Below the pieces are notes generated by a model. That model made no database searches. It saw nothing but the letters and a program-made list of their open reading frames with translations, and had not been told where the DNA came from. The translations under genes were made by a program, and so were the position numbers. From assembly GCA_050944415.1 (NCBI GenBank), contig JBMNRA010000003.1, positions 2,243 through 66,242 of the forward strand: DNA of 64,000 nucleotides. The letters run 5' to 3'. Positions 8,840 to 18,355 of the stretch are shown in pieces. Source of the DNA: Ruminococcus sp. Its GTDB lineage: Bacteria > Bacillota > Clostridia > Lachnospirales > Lachnospiraceae. Position 1 is the stretch's first letter. Each line of letters begins with the position of its first letter.

Positions 8840-10171
8840 TCATTCTCGGTGAATGTGCAAGCCGCCGTTCTTCTCCGGTGAATGGTAGCAAAAGACTACA
8901 TCAGCAAAGCTTACCCGGTCTCCGTCTTTCAGTTTCTTTCCTTCATATCCTACTCCTTCCGTCTGATTAACATAAGTTCCATTTCGGGAATTCAGATCAA
9001 AAATTTCGCATTCTTTATCGCAGCATACTTTTGCATGAACGCGGCTGACTGCCGGTGACGGAAGTACAATATCCACCGCTCCTTCCATCTTCCCCAGAAT
9101 TACTGTTCCCTTTTTCAAGACTATATCCGGCATCCGGGGCGGATGGACGGCCTGCAGTACCCCATAATCTTCCTCATCCGTCGGTTGATTTAAAAGTGAA
9201 GTTTTCAGATCCTCCCTGATATCCGGAAGATCTTTTTCATCCATAGGCTCTTCTGCCGCCATGGTATTAACCAGCCGGACTTCTGCTTTTGGATCCTCCC
9301 TCTTTTTCCTGTCAGCTTTTCTTTTTTTCACTTTCCAGGCCACCACAATTCCCAGAATAACCAAAAACAGCACGGTGCCTGCCGCACAGTAAACCTGCCA
9401 GGAAAAAAAATGATTCCAGATCAGATAAAAACACATAATTCCAACCAGCCCGATTCCTGTTATGCAGAGCATAATTTTCCCGGAATTTTCTTTCTTCCCT
9501 TCTCCCTGATCTTGAAGAAGCGTTTCCAGCACCTCCTCCCTCTTTCTGCTTTCTTCCTCCATGAAAGCAGGATCCAACGCCGCCTCTTCCGGAATATTCG
9601 CCTCTTCCGTTTTCTGGGGTTTTATCATTTCCCGGTATATTTCTCCACGGATTTCCTCCGGATCCAAGCGGCCTTCCATTGCTCTGCGGTAAAGCTGATA
9701 GCCTAATATCACCGCTTCCTGATCCTGATGATCAATTTGCGGCAAAAGGTATTCCGTAAAATGAAGAAAAGCCTGATGATCTGTCTCTTGATGGCTTCTT
9801 GGCCAGCAGCAGAAACCGACCTCCCGATCCGCTGTATTAATGTAAATGTATTCCGGCTGCAGCAGAAGGCAGGAGGGATCCAGAAGATATCGTTCCATTT
9901 CTTCCATGGTCTTTATCAAAGCGCTTATGATCAGAATCATACTGTCCCGATCCAGTTTTTTGCTTTCGTACAGAACAGACAGGGGCTGCTTCGATGTAAT
10001 CTCATAATAAAACAGCGCCTGATTATCCACTCTGTGAATCTGACAGGTTAAAAGTCCGGGTACAGCCCCGTTCAGCAGCATCTTCACAGGATAAGTGTCA
10101 CAGTCGGGCAACTTTTCATCCTGAATAATCAGATAGCTGTGGTGAAAATCTCGTTTATAACTGACTTCCAT
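8840..10171 (-). CDS. Tad-locus membrane protein: DUF6382-like N-domain, 2 TM, C-terminal FHA domain
   Basis: ATG 10171; FHA motifs ILGK...VSRVHA...DLNSRNGTYVN; two hydrophobic helices mid-protein. Confidence 0.8.
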   Translation of the reverse strand: MEVSYKRDFHHSYLIIQDEKLPDCDTYPVKMLLNGAVPGLLTCQIHRVDNQALFYYEITSKQPLSVLYESKKLDRDSMILIISALIKTMEEMERYLLDPSCLLLQPEYIYINTADREVGFCCWPRSHQETDHQAFLHFTEYLLPQIDHQDQEAVILGYQLYRRAMEGRLDPEEIRGEIYREMIKPQKTEEANIPEEAALDPAFMEEESRKREEVLETLLQDQGEGKKENSGKIMLCITGIGLVGIMCFYLIWNHFFSWQVYCAAGTVLFLVILGIVVAWKVKKRKADRKKREDPKAEVRLVNTMAAEEPMDEKDLPDIREDLKTSLLNQPTDEEDYGVLQAVHPPRMPDIVLKKGTVILGKMEGAVDIVLPSPAVSRVHAKVCCDKECEIFDLNSRNGTYVNQTEGVGYEGKKLKDGDRVSFADVVFCYHSPEKNGGLHIHRE

Positions 10172-10172
10172 A

Positions 10173-10598
10173 TTACCTCTCCTTCCAGGCCTTAATGGCA
10201 AGCAGATTACGTATAAAAGGCACCGGCCTTACAAATTCGCTTCTCTGGGCTACTTCCGCTTTCCATGAACCGACTCCCATCACGCCTCCGGATCTGATCT
10301 GTGTCTGCGTTCTCACATAATTCTCCCCCGCAGCCGCAATCATAGTAATTTCTCCCGCAGGAAATCCCTGCTCTCCCTTTCTTTCCGCCATCTTTCCTGC
10401 CACTGTCTTTTGAGCCTCTTGTCCGGAACGCACTCCATCCGTGGATGCGGATATTACAGCCTCTGCCGAAACAGCCGTATACCAGGCTCTGTTATGTACG
10501 AACATAGTCAGCAGAATCAACGCGGAAATAACCATTAAAACCAGCGGAACCACAAAAGCCGCCTCCACTGTCATACTGCCCTTCAGATTTTTCTTCAT
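10173..10598 (-). CDS. tadE: TadE-like minor pilin
   Basis: KGSMTVEAAFVVP class III signal peptide then hydrophobic helix. Confidence 0.8.
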   Translation of the reverse strand: MKKNLKGSMTVEAAFVVPLVLMVISALILLTMFVHNRAWYTAVSAEAVISASTDGVRSGQEAQKTVAGKMAERKGEQGFPAGEITMIAAAGENYVRTQTQIRSGGVMGVGSWKAEVAQRSEFVRPVPFIRNLLAIKAWKER

Positions 10599-11026
10599 TT
10601 AATAAACATGCCTCCCAAATATGCCAGAAACAGAAAAGGTATCCAGGGAAATTCCTGTTTCCAGCCCTTTTTCTTTACAATAAGCAGAATTCCTCCCCAT
10701 ACCGCTGAGAGCAGCATCCCTCCCAGGACAATCTCACAGACTTTCCACAGCCCGTGACAGACTCCCAGCATCAGCACAGTCAGCCCATCCCCATAACCTA
10801 CAGCTTCATTTGTCACTTTTCCTGCGAGCAGAAGCAATATTCCGGGAATGAACGCGGCTGCCAGACTCAGCAGGTCTCTTCCGTTTCTCATCCATATTGC
10901 CGCACCGGCAGAAAAGAACACAGGAAATGACCATTTACAGATTCTTCTGCATTTTATGTCATAAATTCCATTGATTCCAAGAAATAAAATTGTCCACACT
11001 GCTCTTTCCATATTAATCTCTCTCAT
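10595..11026 (-). CDS. A24-family prepilin peptidase (second copy)
   Basis: Asp pair YDIK and GYGDG, multi-TM, FPWIPFL C-terminus. Confidence 0.8.
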   Translation of the reverse strand: MREINMERAVWTILFLGINGIYDIKCRRICKWSFPVFFSAGAAIWMRNGRDLLSLAAAFIPGILLLLAGKVTNEAVGYGDGLTVLMLGVCHGLWKVCEIVLGGMLLSAVWGGILLIVKKKGWKQEFPWIPFLFLAYLGGMFIK

Positions 11027-11921
11027 TGCATCTGCTGCATTTTGGCAAACCTGAAACCTCTGACTTTTTTACCAGCTGCCCCGATCGTTTCAGCGCTGAA
11101 CATTCCGCCGAAAAGTGATAGCTGTCTCCCTTTGGTGTTATGTAAACTACACTGTCCTTTCCCTCATCGCTGCAGTGACTGCATTTCTTATATTTTCCGC
11201 CGTATTCATTCCGGCTTCTTTGAGCTTCTTTTCTGGTTACGCAATAGACCGTTACATTCATGTGAGAACAGTCACTGTGTGTATGATAAACCGTCTGCCT
11301 GTCCGTCACATAGACCATCTCTTCAAAATTTCCCGGGATTTTCTCCTCCTGGCCTCCCTGATATCCGGTCCATGGATGAACCACAGCTTTTACCGGAAAA
11401 ACAACTTTCTTGATTCCCCCGAAGGACACCGGAAAACGGTAAGCCACTCTGGCTTCCAGATGCACACTGCAGTCCGTATAAGAGGAACCGAAACAGGATA
11501 CGGAAACCCTCTCCTCTTTCGGCATCTGTGCCTGAGCAAATCCGATACACACGCCGGTTCCCACCGCTCCCACAGGAGAGGAATCCGATGCAGCTTCACT
11601 GACATAGGCGTACATCCCCAGTTTCTTCGCGCTTTCATTTAAGGAGACGGTTACTTCAGCATAAACTCTTACCAGGTCGATCAGACTGATCAGTATAATC
11701 ACCATAAAAAAGAATATGGGAACTACCATCGCCGCCTCCACAGTAAGGCTGGCCCTTTCTCCGGAGATGCATGAAGACACCCTGACGGCAGATGTATCAC
11801 ATTGTGCCGGGGGAAACATGTAATGATTTGCCTGAAGAGAGTTTTCTGTTTGCTTCTTGATTGGTTGACTGTTACGAACTTTCCGCCAGGGCATCTTCAC
11901 ACACCTCCTGTTTTCTGTCAC
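11013..11921 (-). CDS. tadE: TadE-like pilin with C-terminal tandem His/Cys (Zn-finger-like) motifs
   Basis: RASLTVEAAMVVP pilin motif (true start uncertain); YHxxxxC...CxxC twice. Confidence 0.75.
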   Translation of the reverse strand: MTENRRCVKMPWRKVRNSQPIKKQTENSLQANHYMFPPAQCDTSAVRVSSCISGERASLTVEAAMVVPIFFFMVIILISLIDLVRVYAEVTVSLNESAKKLGMYAYVSEAASDSSPVGAVGTGVCIGFAQAQMPKEERVSVSCFGSSYTDCSVHLEARVAYRFPVSFGGIKKVVFPVKAVVHPWTGYQGGQEEKIPGNFEEMVYVTDRQTVYHTHSDCSHMNVTVYCVTRKEAQRSRNEYGGKYKKCSHCSDEGKDSVVYITPKGDSYHFSAECSALKRSGQLVKKSEVSGLPKCSRCNERD

Positions 11922-13375
11922 TGTTTCATATCATAACCATAGTTTCTCACCGCCTGGTACCGGTTACCCCTGTCTGCTTCAAACTGAAACTGTATTTCAG
12001 CTGCATACAGACAGCAGTCCAGACGAAACTGACCCTTTCCCTGCTCTTTTCGCAGAACCATTTCCATCATATCCATACAGCGGACAGCTTTATCTTCCGA
12101 ACCTTTCATCATCAGCAGGACTCGAAGATAATCCCGATAAGTCATTCCATCCTTCTGCTTTTTTCTTAAGGCATCCACCCCCTGCGAAATTCGAGGCAGA
12201 TCGCTCAGAGATATCTGCCATGAACTATTATCTTTCAGCAGAGGCACTTTGCCTCCGTCCAGCAGCTCCCGCAGATCCAGAACGCTCTCGCCGAAGGCCC
12301 AGCTGACCATCAGAACCGTTTCCAGAGCTTCTGCTCCCTGGGGCGCCCCGAAAAGCGCGGCAATAATCAGCGCCATCGTCTGGGCCTGGGCCCGTTTTCC
12401 CTCATTTTGATAAAGATACAGCAAATTAGACGCCTCCCGTATCAAAAGCAGCCTTGTAACCACGCCTTTTAAATTTTCCGTATCGCTTTCTTTTCCCTGA
12501 AAAATATATTCCAGCTGATACTGCAGCCCTCCTTCCGAAAGTTCATCCGTAAAACAGTTAAAATGCTTTAAAAGATATTCATTGAATATAAGATCTGAAG
12601 TCCAGGCATTACAGGAAGAATCGTAAGCGGGAACTCCCATCCCCTTTTCCAGGGAGCGGCCGGATACCATGGATGATTTTCTCTGGACGGCCGCGGATAT
12701 TTCTTTCCCTTCCGGAAGAACCAGTGATAAAATGCCCTTTCCTTTTGCCGTTTTTACGGCTTCTACCGGGTTGATAAAATTTTCCGGTACGATAGTTCCG
12801 CTTTCCGGCGACTGTGCCGGCACTTCCTGGTCCGAAGCCTGGTTCCTCAGCGCTTCATACTGCGCCATGGCCTCAGCTTCATCAATTTCATTCTTTTTTG
12901 CCTCAATCACCTGTACCGTTTCTTCCTGTCCCTGAACTTTTTCTGCCAGAGAACGCACACCCTGTATTCCCATCATCGTTTCCATATAGGCCACGGCCTG
13001 GGATTTCACGGCATTTCCGCCATTGTCTGTAGCCAGCGTATATCCTGTGATACTGCCGTTTATCAAATCTACATTATCTATTATTCTATTCCCGCCATCC
13101 AAATTAGCGGCCGTATCTTTTTCCAGAATACCGTAAAGCTGTCCCATCTGAAGACTCCCCTGTCCGAAGGAGCCATCCAAAAAAAACAGATGGTATTTCT
13201 CCAGCATTGGAATATCATATCGGGCAAACAGGGAATACAACCCCTGATCTACTCCATGCACGGCCTGCACCCTGGCCCCCGCTGACTGCACCGAATGCAG
13301 CGCCGTTCCAATCAGAGACATAATTACAGCCAACGTCAGGCTCAGATAAACGGTTATGCTTCCCCTCTGATACAA
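11918..13375 (-). CDS. Large pilin-like protein (resembles DUF5702; TadG-like)
   Basis: RGSITVYLSL prepilin-like N-terminus; EYLLKHF, YQLEYIF, LLIREASNLLYL, YRDYLRVLL blocks. Confidence 0.7.
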   Translation of the reverse strand: MYQRGSITVYLSLTLAVIMSLIGTALHSVQSAGARVQAVHGVDQGLYSLFARYDIPMLEKYHLFFLDGSFGQGSLQMGQLYGILEKDTAANLDGGNRIIDNVDLINGSITGYTLATDNGGNAVKSQAVAYMETMMGIQGVRSLAEKVQGQEETVQVIEAKKNEIDEAEAMAQYEALRNQASDQEVPAQSPESGTIVPENFINPVEAVKTAKGKGILSLVLPEGKEISAAVQRKSSMVSGRSLEKGMGVPAYDSSCNAWTSDLIFNEYLLKHFNCFTDELSEGGLQYQLEYIFQGKESDTENLKGVVTRLLLIREASNLLYLYQNEGKRAQAQTMALIIAALFGAPQGAEALETVLMVSWAFGESVLDLRELLDGGKVPLLKDNSSWQISLSDLPRISQGVDALRKKQKDGMTYRDYLRVLLMMKGSEDKAVRCMDMMEMVLRKEQGKGQFRLDCCLYAAEIQFQFEADRGNRYQAVRNYGYDMKQ

Positions 13376-13390: not shown

Positions 13391-13561
13391 CTAAATACTG
13401 TTGCTCTGACTTGTGATTTTTGAAAGAATATTCTTAACCAGACTGACCAGCTGATTTTTAAAAATAATTACCAGACCAATCAAAACGACAAGAATCAAGA
13501 TAATTTCCACCACTCCGATGGCGTCTTCTTCTTTCCAGAAATCACCGATCAACGCACCCAT
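13391..13561 (-). CDS. flp: Flp1-family type IVb major pilin, 56 aa (missed by ORF track)
   Basis: MGALIGDFWKEEDA|IGVVEIILILVVLIGLVIIFKNQLVSLVKNILSKITSQSNSI; SD GGAGGTGAGG; Glu at +5. Confidence 0.9.
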   Translation of the reverse strand: MGALIGDFWKEEDAIGVVEIILILVVLIGLVIIFKNQLVSLVKNILSKITSQSNSI

Positions 13562-13592
13562 AAGCCTCACCTCCTTTCCCCGTACCGTTTTT

Positions 13593-14903
13593 CTACAGAA
13601 TGCTGCCTGCCGGAAACAACAGGATTACAAAAACAATCACCAGCATGAGAACCATCGGAACCAGCAATTTCGTGCCCGCCTGCTCTCCCAGAATTTTGGC
13701 TCTGCGTTTTCTGTTTTCAAATGCGTCCACCGCTTCCCTCTCCAGCATGTCAATAATTTCTCCATTGCCTTTTTTCAGATTTTGTATCAGCAATGTGGAG
13801 AAAGTCTTGTAAACGGCCAGCCCACAGCGGTTTCCCAAATGTTCATAGGCCTCCGCCTCAGGAATTCCCTGCTCCATCTCCGAGTATGCAGCGGCTATTT
13901 CTTCATAGGCGGCTCTTGCAGGAAAATTTCCGCCACCTGTCTGCTTCTGTTTCCGGTAATCCAGCGCCACTTTTGTCAGCGCTTTTCTGGTATTCATCCC
14001 CGCGTTAAGCAGCAATACAAATTTATTCAGAATTTCCGGATAGTCTACCATCATCTCGTCTTGTCTCTTCTTCTGTCTGTCCTGCTTTTCCTGTTTTTTC
14101 CCGAAAATCCACACCAGAGCCAGGGCTGCTGAAAGCATCACCACCGTCAGCCCCGTATGTACCGCCGGACGGCTCCATACGACGCTTTCCCCTTCTACCT
14201 CAGCAGGCAGATACCAGATATTTCCCCCTTTTCTGTCGTCATTCAACTGCTGAAAGCTGTCCTGAGCTTCTCTCTCCCATTTTTCCACCATTGGAATTTT
14301 AGGGGGGAATACCCGGACTGTCAGTTCAAAATCTTCCCGTTCATCCTGGCAGGAAAACGCAGCGTATAACGTTATTTCCGCTCCTTCTTCCGGTATGCTT
14401 TCTCCCAGATGTCCATTCCAGTCTAACAGTTCCGGATTGCTGCTTCCCCAACTGATTTCAACGGGTATATCGGGAAATCCGGTAATCAGCTTCAAATCCG
14501 AATCCACATGATCCAGCGATTGATTTTCTCCCAGAATCGCTTCTTTCAATCTATCCTTTCCATCTTGGAACCAGTTTTTTATTTCACTCTTTTCATAACT
14601 CAGGCCCGGAATCGTCAGCTGAATTTTCTGGCTGCTGCCGTCTTCTTTCTCGGCCTCCAGGACTACCGTCTGATCTTCTTCTGCTGTCTTCTGTTCAATC
14701 TCCGTCAGTTCCTGATTCTGCTGTGCCATATTCCAAATGGTTATTGCCGTTCCCAGAATATTCCCGGCCAGAAGAATACAAACGGCTCCTGTAATCACTT
14801 CCATTGGAATCACCTTCTGAAGCCGGTCTCCTATTTTTCCCTTTATTCCAGGCAGAGCTATGCAAAACAGCAGTAAAAATACTATGCCATGAATCCAGAT
14901 CAT
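13593..14903 (-). CDS. tadC: TadC-like (T2SS-F family) platform protein with extra extracytoplasmic Ig-like region
   Basis: C-terminal YPEILNKFVLLLNAGM...GEQAGTKLLVPM; ISWGSSNP...ITLYA Ig-like segment. Confidence 0.8.
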   Translation of the reverse strand: MIWIHGIVFLLLFCIALPGIKGKIGDRLQKVIPMEVITGAVCILLAGNILGTAITIWNMAQQNQELTEIEQKTAEEDQTVVLEAEKEDGSSQKIQLTIPGLSYEKSEIKNWFQDGKDRLKEAILGENQSLDHVDSDLKLITGFPDIPVEISWGSSNPELLDWNGHLGESIPEEGAEITLYAAFSCQDEREDFELTVRVFPPKIPMVEKWEREAQDSFQQLNDDRKGGNIWYLPAEVEGESVVWSRPAVHTGLTVVMLSAALALVWIFGKKQEKQDRQKKRQDEMMVDYPEILNKFVLLLNAGMNTRKALTKVALDYRKQKQTGGGNFPARAAYEEIAAAYSEMEQGIPEAEAYEHLGNRCGLAVYKTFSTLLIQNLKKGNGEIIDMLEREAVDAFENRKRRAKILGEQAGTKLLVPMVLMLVIVFVILLFPAGSIL

Positions 14904-14905
14904 CG

Positions 14906-15649
14906 CTACACCTCAATCCGGACAATTCTGCGTCCCATCCAGAAAGCCAGCGCATATCCGATCAGACAGACTGTCATAACGCAGACGCCTGCCATATTGC
15001 CGTACAGTACAGATAAAAATTCCGGATCAATTACCTGCATGTAAAGGATAATTCCAAAAGGCACTGCCGCCATGATGCTCTGTTCCATACGTTTGGCCGC
15101 TATACAGGCTTCCACTTCTTTTTCCACTTCAATTTTATCGTTAAGCGTCCTGGCTGTATTCTGCAGGATTCTGCTCAGATTTCCTCCGCTGCGCTTGGCA
15201 ATCCCATAGACCCCCGCAAAATTCCGGATATCTTCCACCTGACTTCTCTCTCCCAGATCTCTCAGCAGCGTCTCCACAGGGACGCTGACTTTCAGCTGAT
15301 TCTGGATGTAACAGAATTCCTCAACGATGGGATCGGATGCCGGATAAATGTTTTTCAGATCCCGGATACATTCCGAAATCGCGTTTTCCATGGAATAGCC
15401 TGCCTTCAAAGCCACACTTAAAGAATTCACCGCGTCTTTAAAGGCATAATTCAGCAGCTTCCTTTTCCTCTTCAGCAGCTTCTGTCTTTTTAACTTCAGA
15501 TAAAACCAGGGAACGGGAAGCAGTGCAAGAAACGCCCACCAGGAGCGATAACAGAGATAGTTGATTCCCGCGCACAGAAACAACGATTCACCCAGATATC
15601 TGATCAATTCTTTTTTGCTGAACCTGTAATGGCTGTAATTATGCTTCAT
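14906..15649 (-). CDS. tadB: TadB-like (T2SS-F family) platform protein
   Basis: LKAGYSMENA, RSGGNL, C-terminal TMs; directly after the ATPase. Confidence 0.85.
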   Translation of the reverse strand: MKHNYSHYRFSKKELIRYLGESLFLCAGINYLCYRSWWAFLALLPVPWFYLKLKRQKLLKRKRKLLNYAFKDAVNSLSVALKAGYSMENAISECIRDLKNIYPASDPIVEEFCYIQNQLKVSVPVETLLRDLGERSQVEDIRNFAGVYGIAKRSGGNLSRILQNTARTLNDKIEVEKEVEACIAAKRMEQSIMAAVPFGIILYMQVIDPEFLSVLYGNMAGVCVMTVCLIGYALAFWMGRRIVRIEV

Positions 15650-16829
15650 AACCTTTCATCCTTTCCAATTTCTCTGTATGTGTCAGAGAGTTCCTTTTTC
15701 GCAGCATCCGGTTTCTGTCATCCCAGGCATACAGTGTTTTCAATACAACCTCCTGATTCTCAAAACCAATGACTTCGCTGATTTCCAGAACCCTTCTTTT
15801 TTTATCCTTCAGCCTTCCCAGATGTATCATGATATCCACGCCGGAAGCAATCTGACGCCGGATAGCTTCCAGCGGGAGCTGCATTCCCATCAGTACCATA
15901 GTTTCCATTCTGCTGATCATATCCGCTGTACTGTTCGCATGAAGAGTTCCTATACTGCCTTCATGTCCCGTGTTCCAGGCTTGAAGCAGATCAATGGCTT
16001 CCTCCTGGCGTACCTCGCCCACAATAATTCTGTTGGGCCGCATTCTGAGAGCCGTTTTGATCAATTCCCGTATTGTAATCTGTTTTCCTCCTTCCATATT
16101 GGCGCTTCGCGCTTCCAGACGAACCAGATTTTCAATCCCCTGAATCTGAAGTTCAGCAGTATCCTCAATGGTAATAATCCTCTCATCCTTCGGGATAAAG
16201 TTGGAAAGGGCATTGAGAAAGGTTGTCTTTCCGGCGGATGTACCGCCTCCAATCAATATGGAATATCCGCTTTTCACCAGCTCTTCCAGAAAAAGAGCAG
16301 CTTCTTCCGATATGCTTCCAAGAGCAATCAACCGTTCCATAGTTATAGGAGAATCAGGGAACCGGCGGATCGTCATCACTGGTCCCCCAATGCATGCAGG
16401 CTCCACAACAACATTAACCCTGGCGCCATTTTCAAGTCTTGCATCCACAATAGGACTGCTTTCGTTGATAATTCGATTACATTTCCCCACAATCTGCTGA
16501 ACCACATCTTCCAGCTTCTCTCTGGAGGTGAACTTCTTATCGTATCTGCTGATTCTTCCTCCTTTTTCCACAAAAATCTGATCACTGCTGTTGACCATAA
16601 TCTCTGTCACTTTCGGATCATCGATCAGATCCTGAATCACATCCAGACGGCGTACCGAATCAAACAGTTCTTTCTGTATCTTCCCTTTCATATTCAGCGG
16701 CAACATCCTGCCATACCGGTCATCAAGCATCATATCATCAATAATTTCTCTGATCTGGCGGTCTGACAGATCCGGCGTCTGTTCCAGCCGCTCCATGAGA
16801 TCTTTCTGCAGTTTTCCAAATTCCGTCAA
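15639..16829 (-). CDS. tadA: CpaF/TadA pilus assembly ATPase
   Basis: Walker A GGTSAGKTT, TIEDTAEL, RMRPNRIIVGEVR, GSIGTLHANS; probable TTG start 16829. Confidence 0.93.
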   Translation of the reverse strand: MTEFGKLQKDLMERLEQTPDLSDRQIREIIDDMMLDDRYGRMLPLNMKGKIQKELFDSVRRLDVIQDLIDDPKVTEIMVNSSDQIFVEKGGRISRYDKKFTSREKLEDVVQQIVGKCNRIINESSPIVDARLENGARVNVVVEPACIGGPVMTIRRFPDSPITMERLIALGSISEEAALFLEELVKSGYSILIGGGTSAGKTTFLNALSNFIPKDERIITIEDTAELQIQGIENLVRLEARSANMEGGKQITIRELIKTALRMRPNRIIVGEVRQEEAIDLLQAWNTGHEGSIGTLHANSTADMISRMETMVLMGMQLPLEAIRRQIASGVDIMIHLGRLKDKKRRVLEISEVIGFENQEVVLKTLYAWDDRNRMLRKRNSLTHTEKLERMKGYEA

Positions 16830-17845
16830 TGATTCTTTTCCTTTCTTACCAGTTCCCTGACAAAATCCCCCAACTGGCTCCAAACCAGCTCATCCAGATA
16901 TTCCCTGCCCCGTTTTTCCGTTCTGTGATACGGAAGTTTCACTTTCTCAATCCGCTCCAAAAGGCTGTCATAATTCCACATCTGAAGAAGATGTTCAAAC
17001 TGCTGCAGCTTTGCTGTCGACATTACGTCTCCCCGTACAGGCATATACACTCTGTGACATTGATTCAAAAACGCATACAACTCGCTGACTCCATCGCCGA
17101 AATCCAGAATGATCGTCTCATAAGGCATATTATTTTCGATTTCCTCCAGCAGCTGAATCCACTCTCCCAGCTTCGTGTTTTGAACATCCATAGGAGACAG
17201 AGCCGGCGGCAGATAATCCAGATTGTTTACCGACCGTACCATTCCGCTGATTTTCAGCGGCAGGTTATTATAATCCTGTCGGATAAAATAAATCAGATCT
17301 CCCAGATTTCTTTCATAACTGCAGTCCAGAAGCTGCTCAAATCCGGCATATTCCTCCAAATTCAGATAGAGAACAGGCTTTTCCTTTGCCAGAATCTGTC
17401 CAAGAGTGAGAGCGAAAGAGGTTTTGGCAGTTCTCCCCACAGGTGAGTAAATGCCGATGCGCTCTTTTTTCTGACGGTTTCCCGTTTTCTGAAAGCACAG
17501 TTTTTCTTTTGCGCCATAGCAGTTCATCACTTCACGAATCACCGCATCTGAAGACTGATACTTGTAAACGCTTGGATAGCAGTCCAACATAGGGTGATGA
17601 ACACCTTCCGAGAGAATTACAATCTGACCGATATCCAGCGTTTTTATCTCCTCGCACATAGCCTTATCAGAAATCAGAAGGATCTCTATCTTCTGTTTTT
17701 CAGCAAATTTCTTCAGCGAATCCAGGCCGGTAAATGCCTGAATATCAAAGGGCATACTGTTCTTTCGGTGAACGTATTCTACGAAATTGCAGGCGTAAGC
17801 CGCTTCCAGATCGCAGACGGCCAGAATATTTTTTCCACTGTTCAT
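16826..17845 (-). CDS. CpaE/TadZ-like protein (receiver-like N-domain plus deviant ParA/MinD P-loop)
   Basis: IYSPVGRTAKTSFALTL, YLNLEEY, IILDFGD; position upstream of tadA. Confidence 0.75.
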   Translation of the reverse strand: MNSGKNILAVCDLEAAYACNFVEYVHRKNSMPFDIQAFTGLDSLKKFAEKQKIEILLISDKAMCEEIKTLDIGQIVILSEGVHHPMLDCYPSVYKYQSSDAVIREVMNCYGAKEKLCFQKTGNRQKKERIGIYSPVGRTAKTSFALTLGQILAKEKPVLYLNLEEYAGFEQLLDCSYERNLGDLIYFIRQDYNNLPLKISGMVRSVNNLDYLPPALSPMDVQNTKLGEWIQLLEEIENNMPYETIILDFGDGVSELYAFLNQCHRVYMPVRGDVMSTAKLQQFEHLLQMWNYDSLLERIEKVKLPYHRTEKRGREYLDELVWSQLGDFVRELVRKEKNH

Positions 17846-18355
17846 TTAATAAAAACCTCCCATATGCAGCATAACGGCCATGAAAACCGGTACGCTGAAG
17901 TGTATATTTTCCAGTCGTTTCCCTTTTTTGCAATAGGGAACAACAGATTTTCTGGTGTAAAGATTACGGAAATATTCGGTGAAATACCGAAGACGTATGA
18001 TCAGAGTTTTTGTATCAATAAGAATTGCCGCACTTAAAAGCGCTCCAAAGAAGAAAGACAGTACCATACATTTTAAAACCACCGCTGGCCCCATTACGCT
18101 TCCCAGCGCTGAAAGGAGCTTGATATCCCCCGCTCCGATCATCCGGAAGAAAAACAGTCCGGCCAGCGTCATCAATGGCAGAAAAGCTCCCGCCATACCG
18201 TTTCCCAGACCCTGAAAACCTTCTGTAATTATCTGAAATATCAGCCCGGTCCCCCAAAACAGGCAGATGCCTTCATTTGGTATACGCTCTGATTTCAAAT
18301 CACAGACTACAGCAGAGTATGCCATAGCAAATAGTATTTTATAATAAAGGGGCAA
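17846..18355 (-). CDS. A24-family prepilin peptidase (CpaA/TadV-like)
   Basis: CDLKSERIPN, IGAGDIKL, HFSVPVF. Confidence 0.88.
   Translation of the reverse strand: MPLYYKILFAMAYSAVVCDLKSERIPNEGICLFWGTGLIFQIITEGFQGLGNGMAGAFLPLMTLAGLFFFRMIGAGDIKLLSALGSVMGPAVVLKCMVLSFFFGALLSAAILIDTKTLIIRLRYFTEYFRNLYTRKSVVPYCKKGKRLENIHFSVPVFMAVMLHMGGFY

Follow-up and report, generated by a model that had tools for sequence, protein, structure and literature searches.

The locus analysed here raises the question of what a pilus of the Lachnospiraceae might bind with two zinc-finger-like modules at the end of one of its minor pilins. The window, by which we mean the whole stretch of DNA under study, comprises 64,000 nucleotides (nt) of a Ruminococcus sp. 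genome from this family (GenBank assembly GCA_050944415.1, contig JBMNRA010000003.1, positions 2,243 to 66,242). Within a complete monoderm Tad/Flp operon of this window lies the gene of a modular minor pilin with a double zinc module at its C-terminus. We propose that this protein is a core minor pilin of the Lachnospiraceae Tad pilus and that its modules would form the ligand-binding end of the pilus, with DNA as the best-supported ligand. We put this forward tentatively, as a reading that falls somewhat short of an even chance.

A minor pilin with two C-terminal modules

The TadE/TadF-type minor pilin gene occupies 11013..11894 on the minus strand, which also carries all other features of the window described below, and encodes 293 amino acids (aa). 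The first-pass annotation had drawn an open reading frame (ORF) at 11013-11921. This ORF is real and lies on the minus strand, but it opens at a GTG codon 27 nt 5' of the real ATG. Because the homologues align from Met10 of the ORF onward, that is from its tenth codon, and because an AGGAGG motif is located 8 nt 5' of the ATG at 11894, we place the start of the pilin at this ATG, which lies 24 nt past the stop of the preceding gene. We found 59 homologues of the pilin at E<=1e-3, which are mostly unnamed proteins from Clostridia metagenomes; some bear NCBI names such as 'pilus assembly protein' and 'TadE/TadG family type IV pilus assembly protein [Lacrimispora brassicae]'.

The structure of the pilin was modelled with AlphaFold2 (AF2) from a 45-sequence alignment, which resulted in a mean predicted local distance difference test (pLDDT) score of 77 for the full protein. 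The model and the alignment delimit a long basic leader peptide (aa 1-48, 11751..11894) that ends in ...GERA before the predicted cleavage site. Residues 1-45 of the leader are disordered (pLDDT <50) and its length varies among homologues; an SLQA patch is conserved. The leader is followed by a prepilin-type motif, (G/A)↓SLTVEAA (the arrow marks the cleavage site), and the alpha-1 helix (together aa 49-101, 11592..11750), for which there is, besides the alignment and the model, a weak match to Pfam TadE (PF07811) that stays under the cut-off (14.5 bits, E 0.039, versus 22.9). The sequence behind the leader reads A↓SLTVEAAMVVPIFFF, with Glu at +5. Across 45 homologues, S49 (+1) and E53 (+5) never vary, and Gly or Ala occupies position -1; furthermore, L50, T51, A55 and P59 are conserved to at least 90% in the homologue alignment. 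Judged by these residues, A48↓S49-L-T-V-E53 is a predicted prepilin-peptidase motif, and comparable motifs are present in two neighbours, a 141-aa TadE-like protein (KG↓SMTVEAA) and a DUF5702 protein (RG↓SITVY). The helix, which is long and hydrophobic, spans 52 residues in the model (aa 50-101) and leads into a small pilin head (aa 102-177, 11364..11591; pLDDT ~90) that combines a short helix with a beta sheet of four strands and ends in a conserved W175-x-G177. Next comes a flexible acidic/Gly linker (aa 178-192, 11319..11363) that has a pLDDT <50 at aa 178-187 and a variable length among homologues. The invariant S49 and E53, the modelled helix with its beta head and the Tad locus context all agree with the initial assignment to TadE-type minor pilins, and we regard the protein as a predicted TadE/TadF-type minor pilin of a Tad/Flp (type IVc) pilus.

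Behind the linker lie the two tandem repeats that had been noticed in the first-pass annotation, and we describe them as ADA_N-like zinc modules. Module 1 (aa 193-241, 11172..11318; pLDDT 75-91) has the sequence MVYVTDRQTVYHTHSDCSH...KKCSHC, with H204, C209, C238 and C241 as putative ligands and with a family-specific insert, RNxYGxKY. Module 2 (aa 249-289, 11028..11150) has the sequence VVYITPKGDSYHFSAECSALKR...KCSRC, with H260, C265, C286 and C289 as putative ligands, and contains a conserved basic stretch, CSxLKRxxxLVKKSE. The basic tail that had been described along with the repeats is absent: behind the last Cys the protein ends with NERD, and its basic residues are found within the modules. 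All eight putative ligands are invariant in 30 homologues that are 32-75% identical to the C-terminal region of the window's pilin, thus the repeats are not due to chance. In the AF2 model, two ligands are placed in the loop after strand 2 and the CxxC where the last helix begins, which agrees with the description of ADA_N domains in PMC12353581. The modules probably bind zinc through these His-Cys-Cys-Cys ligands. Each module of the window has a net charge of +4. Among 158 family members, 78% have a positive module 2 (median net charge +3), while the pilin heads of the family carry a net negative charge with a median of -3.

Part of the ligand set has been lost in one pilin subclade (P0039, P0041, P0043, P0044 and P0058). 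In these proteins, module 1 is without its last Cys (...KPCPGFPAGY...) and module 2 without the His and the first Cys (...YYYPSTDYGSL...); the rest of both modules is conserved.

Conservation within the Lachnospiraceae

A search with the C-terminal 102 aa of the pilin retrieved 2027 clusters (at 50% identity) with E<=1e-3, of which 1051 reached E<=1e-10. Nearly all proteins in the top 150 clusters are 200-350 aa long and carry the double module at the C-terminus. We then surveyed 151 genomes, one per genus of the window's GTDB family, and found the double module in 144 of them (122 of the 125 high-quality genomes), nearly always as a single copy. Among 301 genomes from across the phylum, it was found only in the three that belong to the Lachnospiraceae. 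A whole-genome motif scan of the source genome yielded no second module-bearing protein. The presence in 144 of the 151 genera, together with the restriction to this family among the phylum genomes, shows that the pilin gene is a core, vertically inherited and family-specific gene and no peculiarity of the source genome.

Relationship of the modules to the Ada zinc domain

To compare the modules with the metal-binding domain of Ada, we used four profiles, which represent the pilin modules (A3), generic modules of the VYxT type (A5), modules of the YIGNxNS type (A6) and nine true Ada/AdaA N-terminal domains from genomes (A7). The pilin modules match the generic modules with 98.5% (hhalign, E 2e-15). 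The generic modules in turn match the true Ada domains with 96.5% (E 7e-10), in an alignment where each of the four ligand columns coincides, and the YIGNxNS type with 98.3%. The latter subtype, YIGNxNSxKFHxxxC...GYxPCKxCxP, passes the cut-off of PF02805 (Ada_Zn_binding) with 25-44 bits. In addition, the best matches of A5 in the PDB are four Ada entries (1U8B, 1WPK, 1ZGW and 1ADN; E 0.005-0.03).

We thus consider the pilin modules likely to be divergent members of the ADA_N-like zinc-domain superfamily, a membership that rests on the transitive chain from A3 over A5 to A7 and A6, because the direct comparisons, such as that of A3 with A6 (53.9%), are weak. The resemblance to the Ada metal-binding domain that had been suspected from the motifs is therefore supported through the chain. 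The expected direct match to PF02805 was not obtained at E<=10, and the connection holds through the intermediate profiles. A homologue search with module 2 alone returned three near-identical proteins. Two further results were set aside: the sole result besides the weak TadE match in the direct Pfam and NCBIfam scans of the protein, its C-terminal 103 aa and each module, DnaJ_CXXCXGXG, is a chance match, and a search of A3 against the PDB (hmmsearch) gave only spurious matches of a 'VYVTD.GN' strand to designed Pizza propellers.

In the alignment of A5 and A7, the His of the YH motif aligns with Cys38 of Ada, and the first ligand is an invariant His in every extracellular subtype. Cys38 is reportedly the methyl acceptor of Ada, as attributed to He et al. 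2005 and Lin et al. 2001. As a His stands at this position, the methyl-transfer chemistry of Ada is not expected in the modules.

Module-bearing proteins and DNA as candidate ligand

Single related modules were detected with an A3 profile scan of the 301 genomes across the phylum. Their generic form is VYxTxTGxKYHxxGCRYL...GYxPCxxCxPP, and they form the C-terminal ends of other proteins that are secreted or anchored in the membrane. The carriers of VYxT-type modules include four SNase nucleases and four ComEC-type MBL hydrolases, two of which also contain Cu_amine_oxidN1, so that eight of the approximately 20 modules of this type reside on SNase or MBL proteins. The other carriers are three Cu_amine_oxidN1 proteins, one SH3_3 protein and several proteins that consist only of a signal peptide or membrane anchor and the module. 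Furthermore, we extracted 17 second-tier loci with PF02805, of which 15 were resolvable; all 15 have the module fused to a nuclease, which is SNase in eight cases, MBL in six and Zn_dep_PLPC/S1-P1-like in one. Kin of the module on secreted nucleases and on ComEC-type proteins, to which the first-pass annotation had pointed, were hence found in the form of SNase and ComEC-type MBL fusions.

Two of the loci deserve a separate mention. At G052:C1:1514603-1517731 (L024 and L069), two adjacent SNase genes have tails of different subtype, VYVTxTGHKYH in one and YVGNKNSRKFH in the other. P0139 is a membrane-anchored protein of 1129 aa with at least 13 tandem single modules of the His-Cys-Cys-Cys type (VYxTxxGxYYHxxxxCSGM...GKxACPxC) that are joined by Ser/Gly/Thr linkers; such an array is as expected of a polymer binder.

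The N-terminal domain of Ada is itself a binder of the DNA backbone. Given the nuclease fusions, the Ada ancestry and the net positive charge, DNA appears to be the best-supported ligand of the modules, as far as this can be judged from sequence. ADA_N-like domains in secreted Gram-positive proteins have been described independently by Pei et al. 2025 (PMC12353581), with Cwp27 of C. difficile, a secreted ComEC/Rec2-family protein, ArfC of M. tuberculosis and an LGFP protein as examples. The pilin architecture is absent from the ADA_N-like proteins listed there.

Genetic work on Tad pili suggests how the modules could be displayed. Herrou et al. 2025 (PMC12075869) showed that TadE/F/G-like 'Tip' complexes with exposed variable domains prime and functionalise Tad pili, and the trio of DUF5702 protein, pilin and second TadE-like protein encoded in the window appears to fit this scheme. 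We envisage that the pilin would insert into the membrane with its leader on the cytoplasmic side and would be cleaved at A48↓S49 by one of the two peptidases of A24 type that the locus encodes. Its alpha-1 helix could then associate with the corresponding helices of the DUF5702 (TadG-like) and second TadE-like proteins in a complex by which the Flp filament is primed and capped. Both the cleavage and the position at the tip are inferred. The flexible linker of about 15 residues would keep the two zinc modules off the pilin head, and the modules could bind the phosphate backbone of extracellular DNA independently of its sequence. The bound DNA might be captured for uptake, or DNA of a matrix might be used as a hold.

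Several points weigh against DNA as the ligand or against the ancestry that favours it. Pfam and NCBIfam gave no match to the C-terminal 103 aa or to either module even at E<=10, Foldseek searches of the PDB with the full model and with a model of the double module returned nothing at E<=0.001 (the single domain has about 45 aa), and the direct comparison of A3 with A7 is weak (27.6%). Metal binding seems to be dispensable in one pilin subclade, as part of the ligand set is lost there. Moreover, the association with nucleases is not exclusive, since the same type of module is fused to wall-binding domains (Cu_amine_oxidN1 and SH3_3) and to bare membrane anchors. ADA_N-like domains have also been found fused to CW_binding_2 and LGFP, and their function is left to be determined in the same study (PMC12353581). 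Finally, a positive charge suits any polyanion, including teichoic acids and mucins.

Alternative roles of the modules

Alternatively, the modules could form an adhesin head for a ligand other than DNA, for instance host mucin or other glycans, dietary particles or envelope polymers of other bacteria, and the pilus would help to colonise the gut, as it does in Bifidobacterium. By default, Tad pili act in adhesion, and their exposed variable tip domains recognise targets (PMC12075869). Surface proteins that are no nucleases carry the module as well (the Cu_amine_oxidN1 and SH3_3 proteins, the membrane anchors and the 1129-aa array), and so does Cwp27 of C. difficile, with one module (PMC12353581). 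However, a head that is specific for a host or a diet should vary, whereas the pilin is single-copy and syntenic with invariant ligands over 144 genera from very different niches; furthermore, the domain is most strongly associated with a DNase. We therefore judge an adhesin for another ligand to be unlikely, while giving it more weight than the explanations that follow.

A more specific role of DNA binding was suggested in the first-pass annotation: the pilin could be the DNA receptor of a competence pilus, where the Tad pilus would retract with bound DNA and pass it on to ComEA and ComEC in a type IVc natural transformation. The nuclease fusions, the Ada ancestry and the positive charge apply to this explanation too. 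The involvement of Tad pili in transformation of Actinobacteria, to which that annotation referred, has been reported in Micrococcus luteus (PMC4322843). Apart from the Tad CpaF, no strong T2SSE-family ATPase was found in the source genome (93% complete), hence any DNA uptake by a type IV filament in this bacterium must use the Tad system. Across the family, the Tad pilus is not the only candidate uptake pilus, as about half of the genomes (75 of 151) also encode a PilB-type ATPase that could serve uptake.

Co-occurrence with competence genes had been named as a way to examine the idea. The genes comEC, comEA (contig C46) and dprA (contig C56) are all present in the source genome, but their presence is uninformative. 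These genes were also detected in 10-11 of 14 control genomes, whether competent or not, and comEC is present in 147 of the 151 family genomes, in most of them intact, so that with com genes and pilin module (144 of 151) both being near-universal their co-occurrence carries no information. In addition, comEC of the source genome is broken. It is split by an inserted element into two parts that lie outside the window (C46:83-2780 and C50:1-1652). The 5' part comprises the first ~222 codons and ends with ...YHILAISG on C46, where it is followed by foreign AT-rich DNA with a small SymE/AbrB-like ORF and the hsdM gene of a type I restriction-modification system. The 3' part resumes with ...GTHLTMIG 90 nt into C50 and is followed by holA. 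The 90 nt of foreign DNA at the start of C50 hold a perfect hairpin of 14 bp.

The same break point (position 28-30 of Pfam Competence) was observed in other genera of the family (G308:C45, G423:C12, G398:C24 and G369:C2). On G308:C45 (L072, 1690-8254), genes for a large serine recombinase, a Cro/CI-type helix-turn-helix protein and a DUF5677 protein precede the 3' part of comEC; in G423, G398 and G369, comEC starts at the break position, 35-322 nt from the contig start. The comEC of G405, considered as a further split copy, was rejected as it is full length. In this family, comEC looks like a site to which serine-recombinase elements attach repeatedly. As mobile elements target active competence genes (PMC12378983), these insertions count in favour of a competence pilus, whereas the split comEC of the source genome counts against it, as does the lack of any report of natural competence in Lachnospiraceae in our literature search. 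A competence receptor hence seems to us doubtful, more so than an adhesin. The wider proposal, which we regard as slightly more doubtful again, is that Lachnospiraceae use their core Tad pilus for DNA uptake, with the zinc-module pilin as a sequence-independent receptor unrelated to the known competence pilins, and that insertions into comEC switch the pathway off.

The modules might also have no external ligand, with the zinc being structural. They could then stabilise or dock the tip, with the DUF5702 protein or the Flp filament as possible partners, or anchor a short pseudopilus in the cell wall. Near-universal conservation in a single copy resembles that of a machine part, one subclade tolerates the loss of several ligands, and wall-binding domains are common partners of the module (PMC12353581). 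Nevertheless, the linker of low confidence and variable length suits a tethered head better than a packed interface, and modules that are secreted alone or strung into arrays speak for a unit that binds autonomously, which makes a purely structural role improbable in our view and places it behind the two explanations above. Lastly, Ada-style sensing or repair of alkylated DNA, as PMC12353581 suggests for ADA_N-like domains generally, can practically be dismissed, since the domain is extracellular on a pilin and the His in the Cys38 column cannot take up a methyl group in the same way.

The Tad operon of the window

All genes of the operon are encoded on the minus strand and mostly overlap or lie a few bases apart. 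Their order is A24-like peptidase, TadZ-like, CpaF/TadA ATPase, two T2SSF proteins, Flp1_like, DUF5702, pilin, A24, TadE-like and DUF6382-FHA. The Tad machinery (13593..18355) comprises the first A24-like peptidase, the TadZ-like protein, the CpaF/TadA ATPase and the TadC-like and TadB-like platform proteins. T2SSF (twice) and T2SSE match above the Pfam cut-off, and TadZ-like_ARD stays under it (17.3 bits versus 27.4, E 0.0064). The first A24-like peptidase (17846-18355, 169 aa) was assigned by its GAGDIKL motif and by a Peptidase_A24 gene at the equivalent position in Lacrimispora brassicae (L040); its ORF, which was scanned against NCBIfam only, had no match there. The Flp1-like major pilin (13391..13570, 59 aa; Pfam Flp1_like, E 2.6e-24) is followed by the DUF5702 protein (11918..13375, 485 aa; Pfam DUF5702, E 1.5e-91) with its pilin-like N-terminus. 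The DUF5702 gene is always located immediately upstream of the pilin gene in homologous loci, and its product is the probable TadG-like partner in the tip complex.

Downstream, a second short A24-type prepilin peptidase (10595..11026, 143 aa), whose match to Pfam Peptidase_A24 is below the cut-off (20.4 bits versus 26.5, E 7e-4), shares 14 nt with the 3' end of the pilin gene. It is followed by the second TadE-like minor pilin (10173..10598; Pfam TadE, 26.6 bits, above the cut-off), and a DUF6382-FHA protein (8840..10201; Pfam DUF6382 and FHA) closes the operon. The positions of the second peptidase and of the DUF6382-FHA gene are shared with the locus of Lacrimispora brassicae, a member of the Lachnospiraceae, and with a second Lachnospiraceae locus (L041). 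In Lacrimispora, the gene order is identical, including the flanking genes HIT, murG, rhomboid and sigma factor. The second locus contains the distal half only (Flp1_like, DUF5702, pilin, A24, TadE-like and FHA) next to the HIT/murG flank, and no motor genes were found within its 9-kb flanks.

The operon thus includes two short A24-type peptidases, one that heads the operon and one whose gene lies between those of the minor pilins. Lacrimispora keeps this arrangement, and the distal-half-only locus has just the inner copy. The two peptidases may process Flp and the minor pilins separately. Right after the FHA gene of Lacrimispora brassicae (L040, 12205-16263), there are zinc uptake genes of the znuABC type and a gene for a Fur-family regulator. 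Their location beside the Tad locus is probably a coincidence, and a role in zinc uptake was rejected because these neighbours are absent from the window.

Comparison with known pilins and zinc domains

The pilin shares several properties with the TadE/TadF/TadG minor pilins and Tips known from the tad locus of Aggregatibacter and from Kil of Myxococcus (PMC12075869). These are the prepilin N-terminus with Glu at +5, the alpha-1 helix and the beta head, a TadG-like partner, a second TadE-like gene and an own short A24 peptidase in the tad locus, and an extra domain exposed beyond the pilin fold. It differs from them in that the extra domain is placed on the TadE/F-like subunit and not on the large TadG/KilN-like one, and in that this domain is a tandem zinc module, which is not reported on any pilin. 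Furthermore, the leader is unusually long with 48 aa, and the Lachnospiraceae system is monoderm and has no secretin.

Pilins that carry a C-terminally grafted module and sit at the tip of a type IV pilus in a monoderm are also known from Streptococcus sanguinis, namely PilB (vWA) and PilC (lectin) (PMC12075869); those are type IVa proteins with adhesin modules of known ligand, whereas here zinc modules occur in a type IVc (Tad) system. An electropositive minor or tip pilin has been proposed to hold DNA in Neisseria (ComP), Legionella (FimT) and Vibrio cholerae, and transformation of M. luteus likewise involves a Tad machine (PMC4322843, PMC6370729). There is, however, no sequence relationship to the pilins of the former three, and none of them uses a zinc module.

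Compared to the ADA_N-like domains (ECOD X-group, PMC12353581), the pilin copies form a tandem pair that is fused to a pilin, and they belong to a divergent subtype, VYxTxxGxxYH...CSxLKR...CSRC, that is missed by PF02805. With the N-terminal domain of E. coli Ada (PF02805; 1ADN, 1EYF, 1U8B, 1ZGW and 1WPK), which provides the best PDB match to the sister profile A5, they have in common the spacing and order of the four ligands and the G-[YF]-x-P-C-x-x-C end. They differ from Ada in the replacement of Cys38 by His, in that no helix-turn-helix follows the modules, and in being extracellular instead of cytoplasmic.

Implications for the Lachnospiraceae

Tad Tips and ADA_N-like domains have both been described recently. 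They come together in this pilin, and the link is absent from the papers that we searched; literature on Ada-like domains of nucleases, on DUF5702, DUF6382 and Flp1_like, and on Tad pili or competence of Lachnospiraceae contained no description of the pilin. To our knowledge, very few Tad tip domains have a known ligand, and none of these is from gut Firmicutes. The Lachnospiraceae are a dominant, genetically recalcitrant family of the gut and a major butyrate-producing family in humans, and almost every genus has kept a pilin domain that is otherwise at home on secreted DNases. If the modules do bind DNA, this would be the first function for an extracellular ADA_N-like domain, a domain described in 2025. 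It would also provide a molecular handle on how Lachnospiraceae meet extracellular DNA, be it in uptake, in the biofilm matrix or in nutrient scavenging, and on their natural transformability and hence their genetic tractability.

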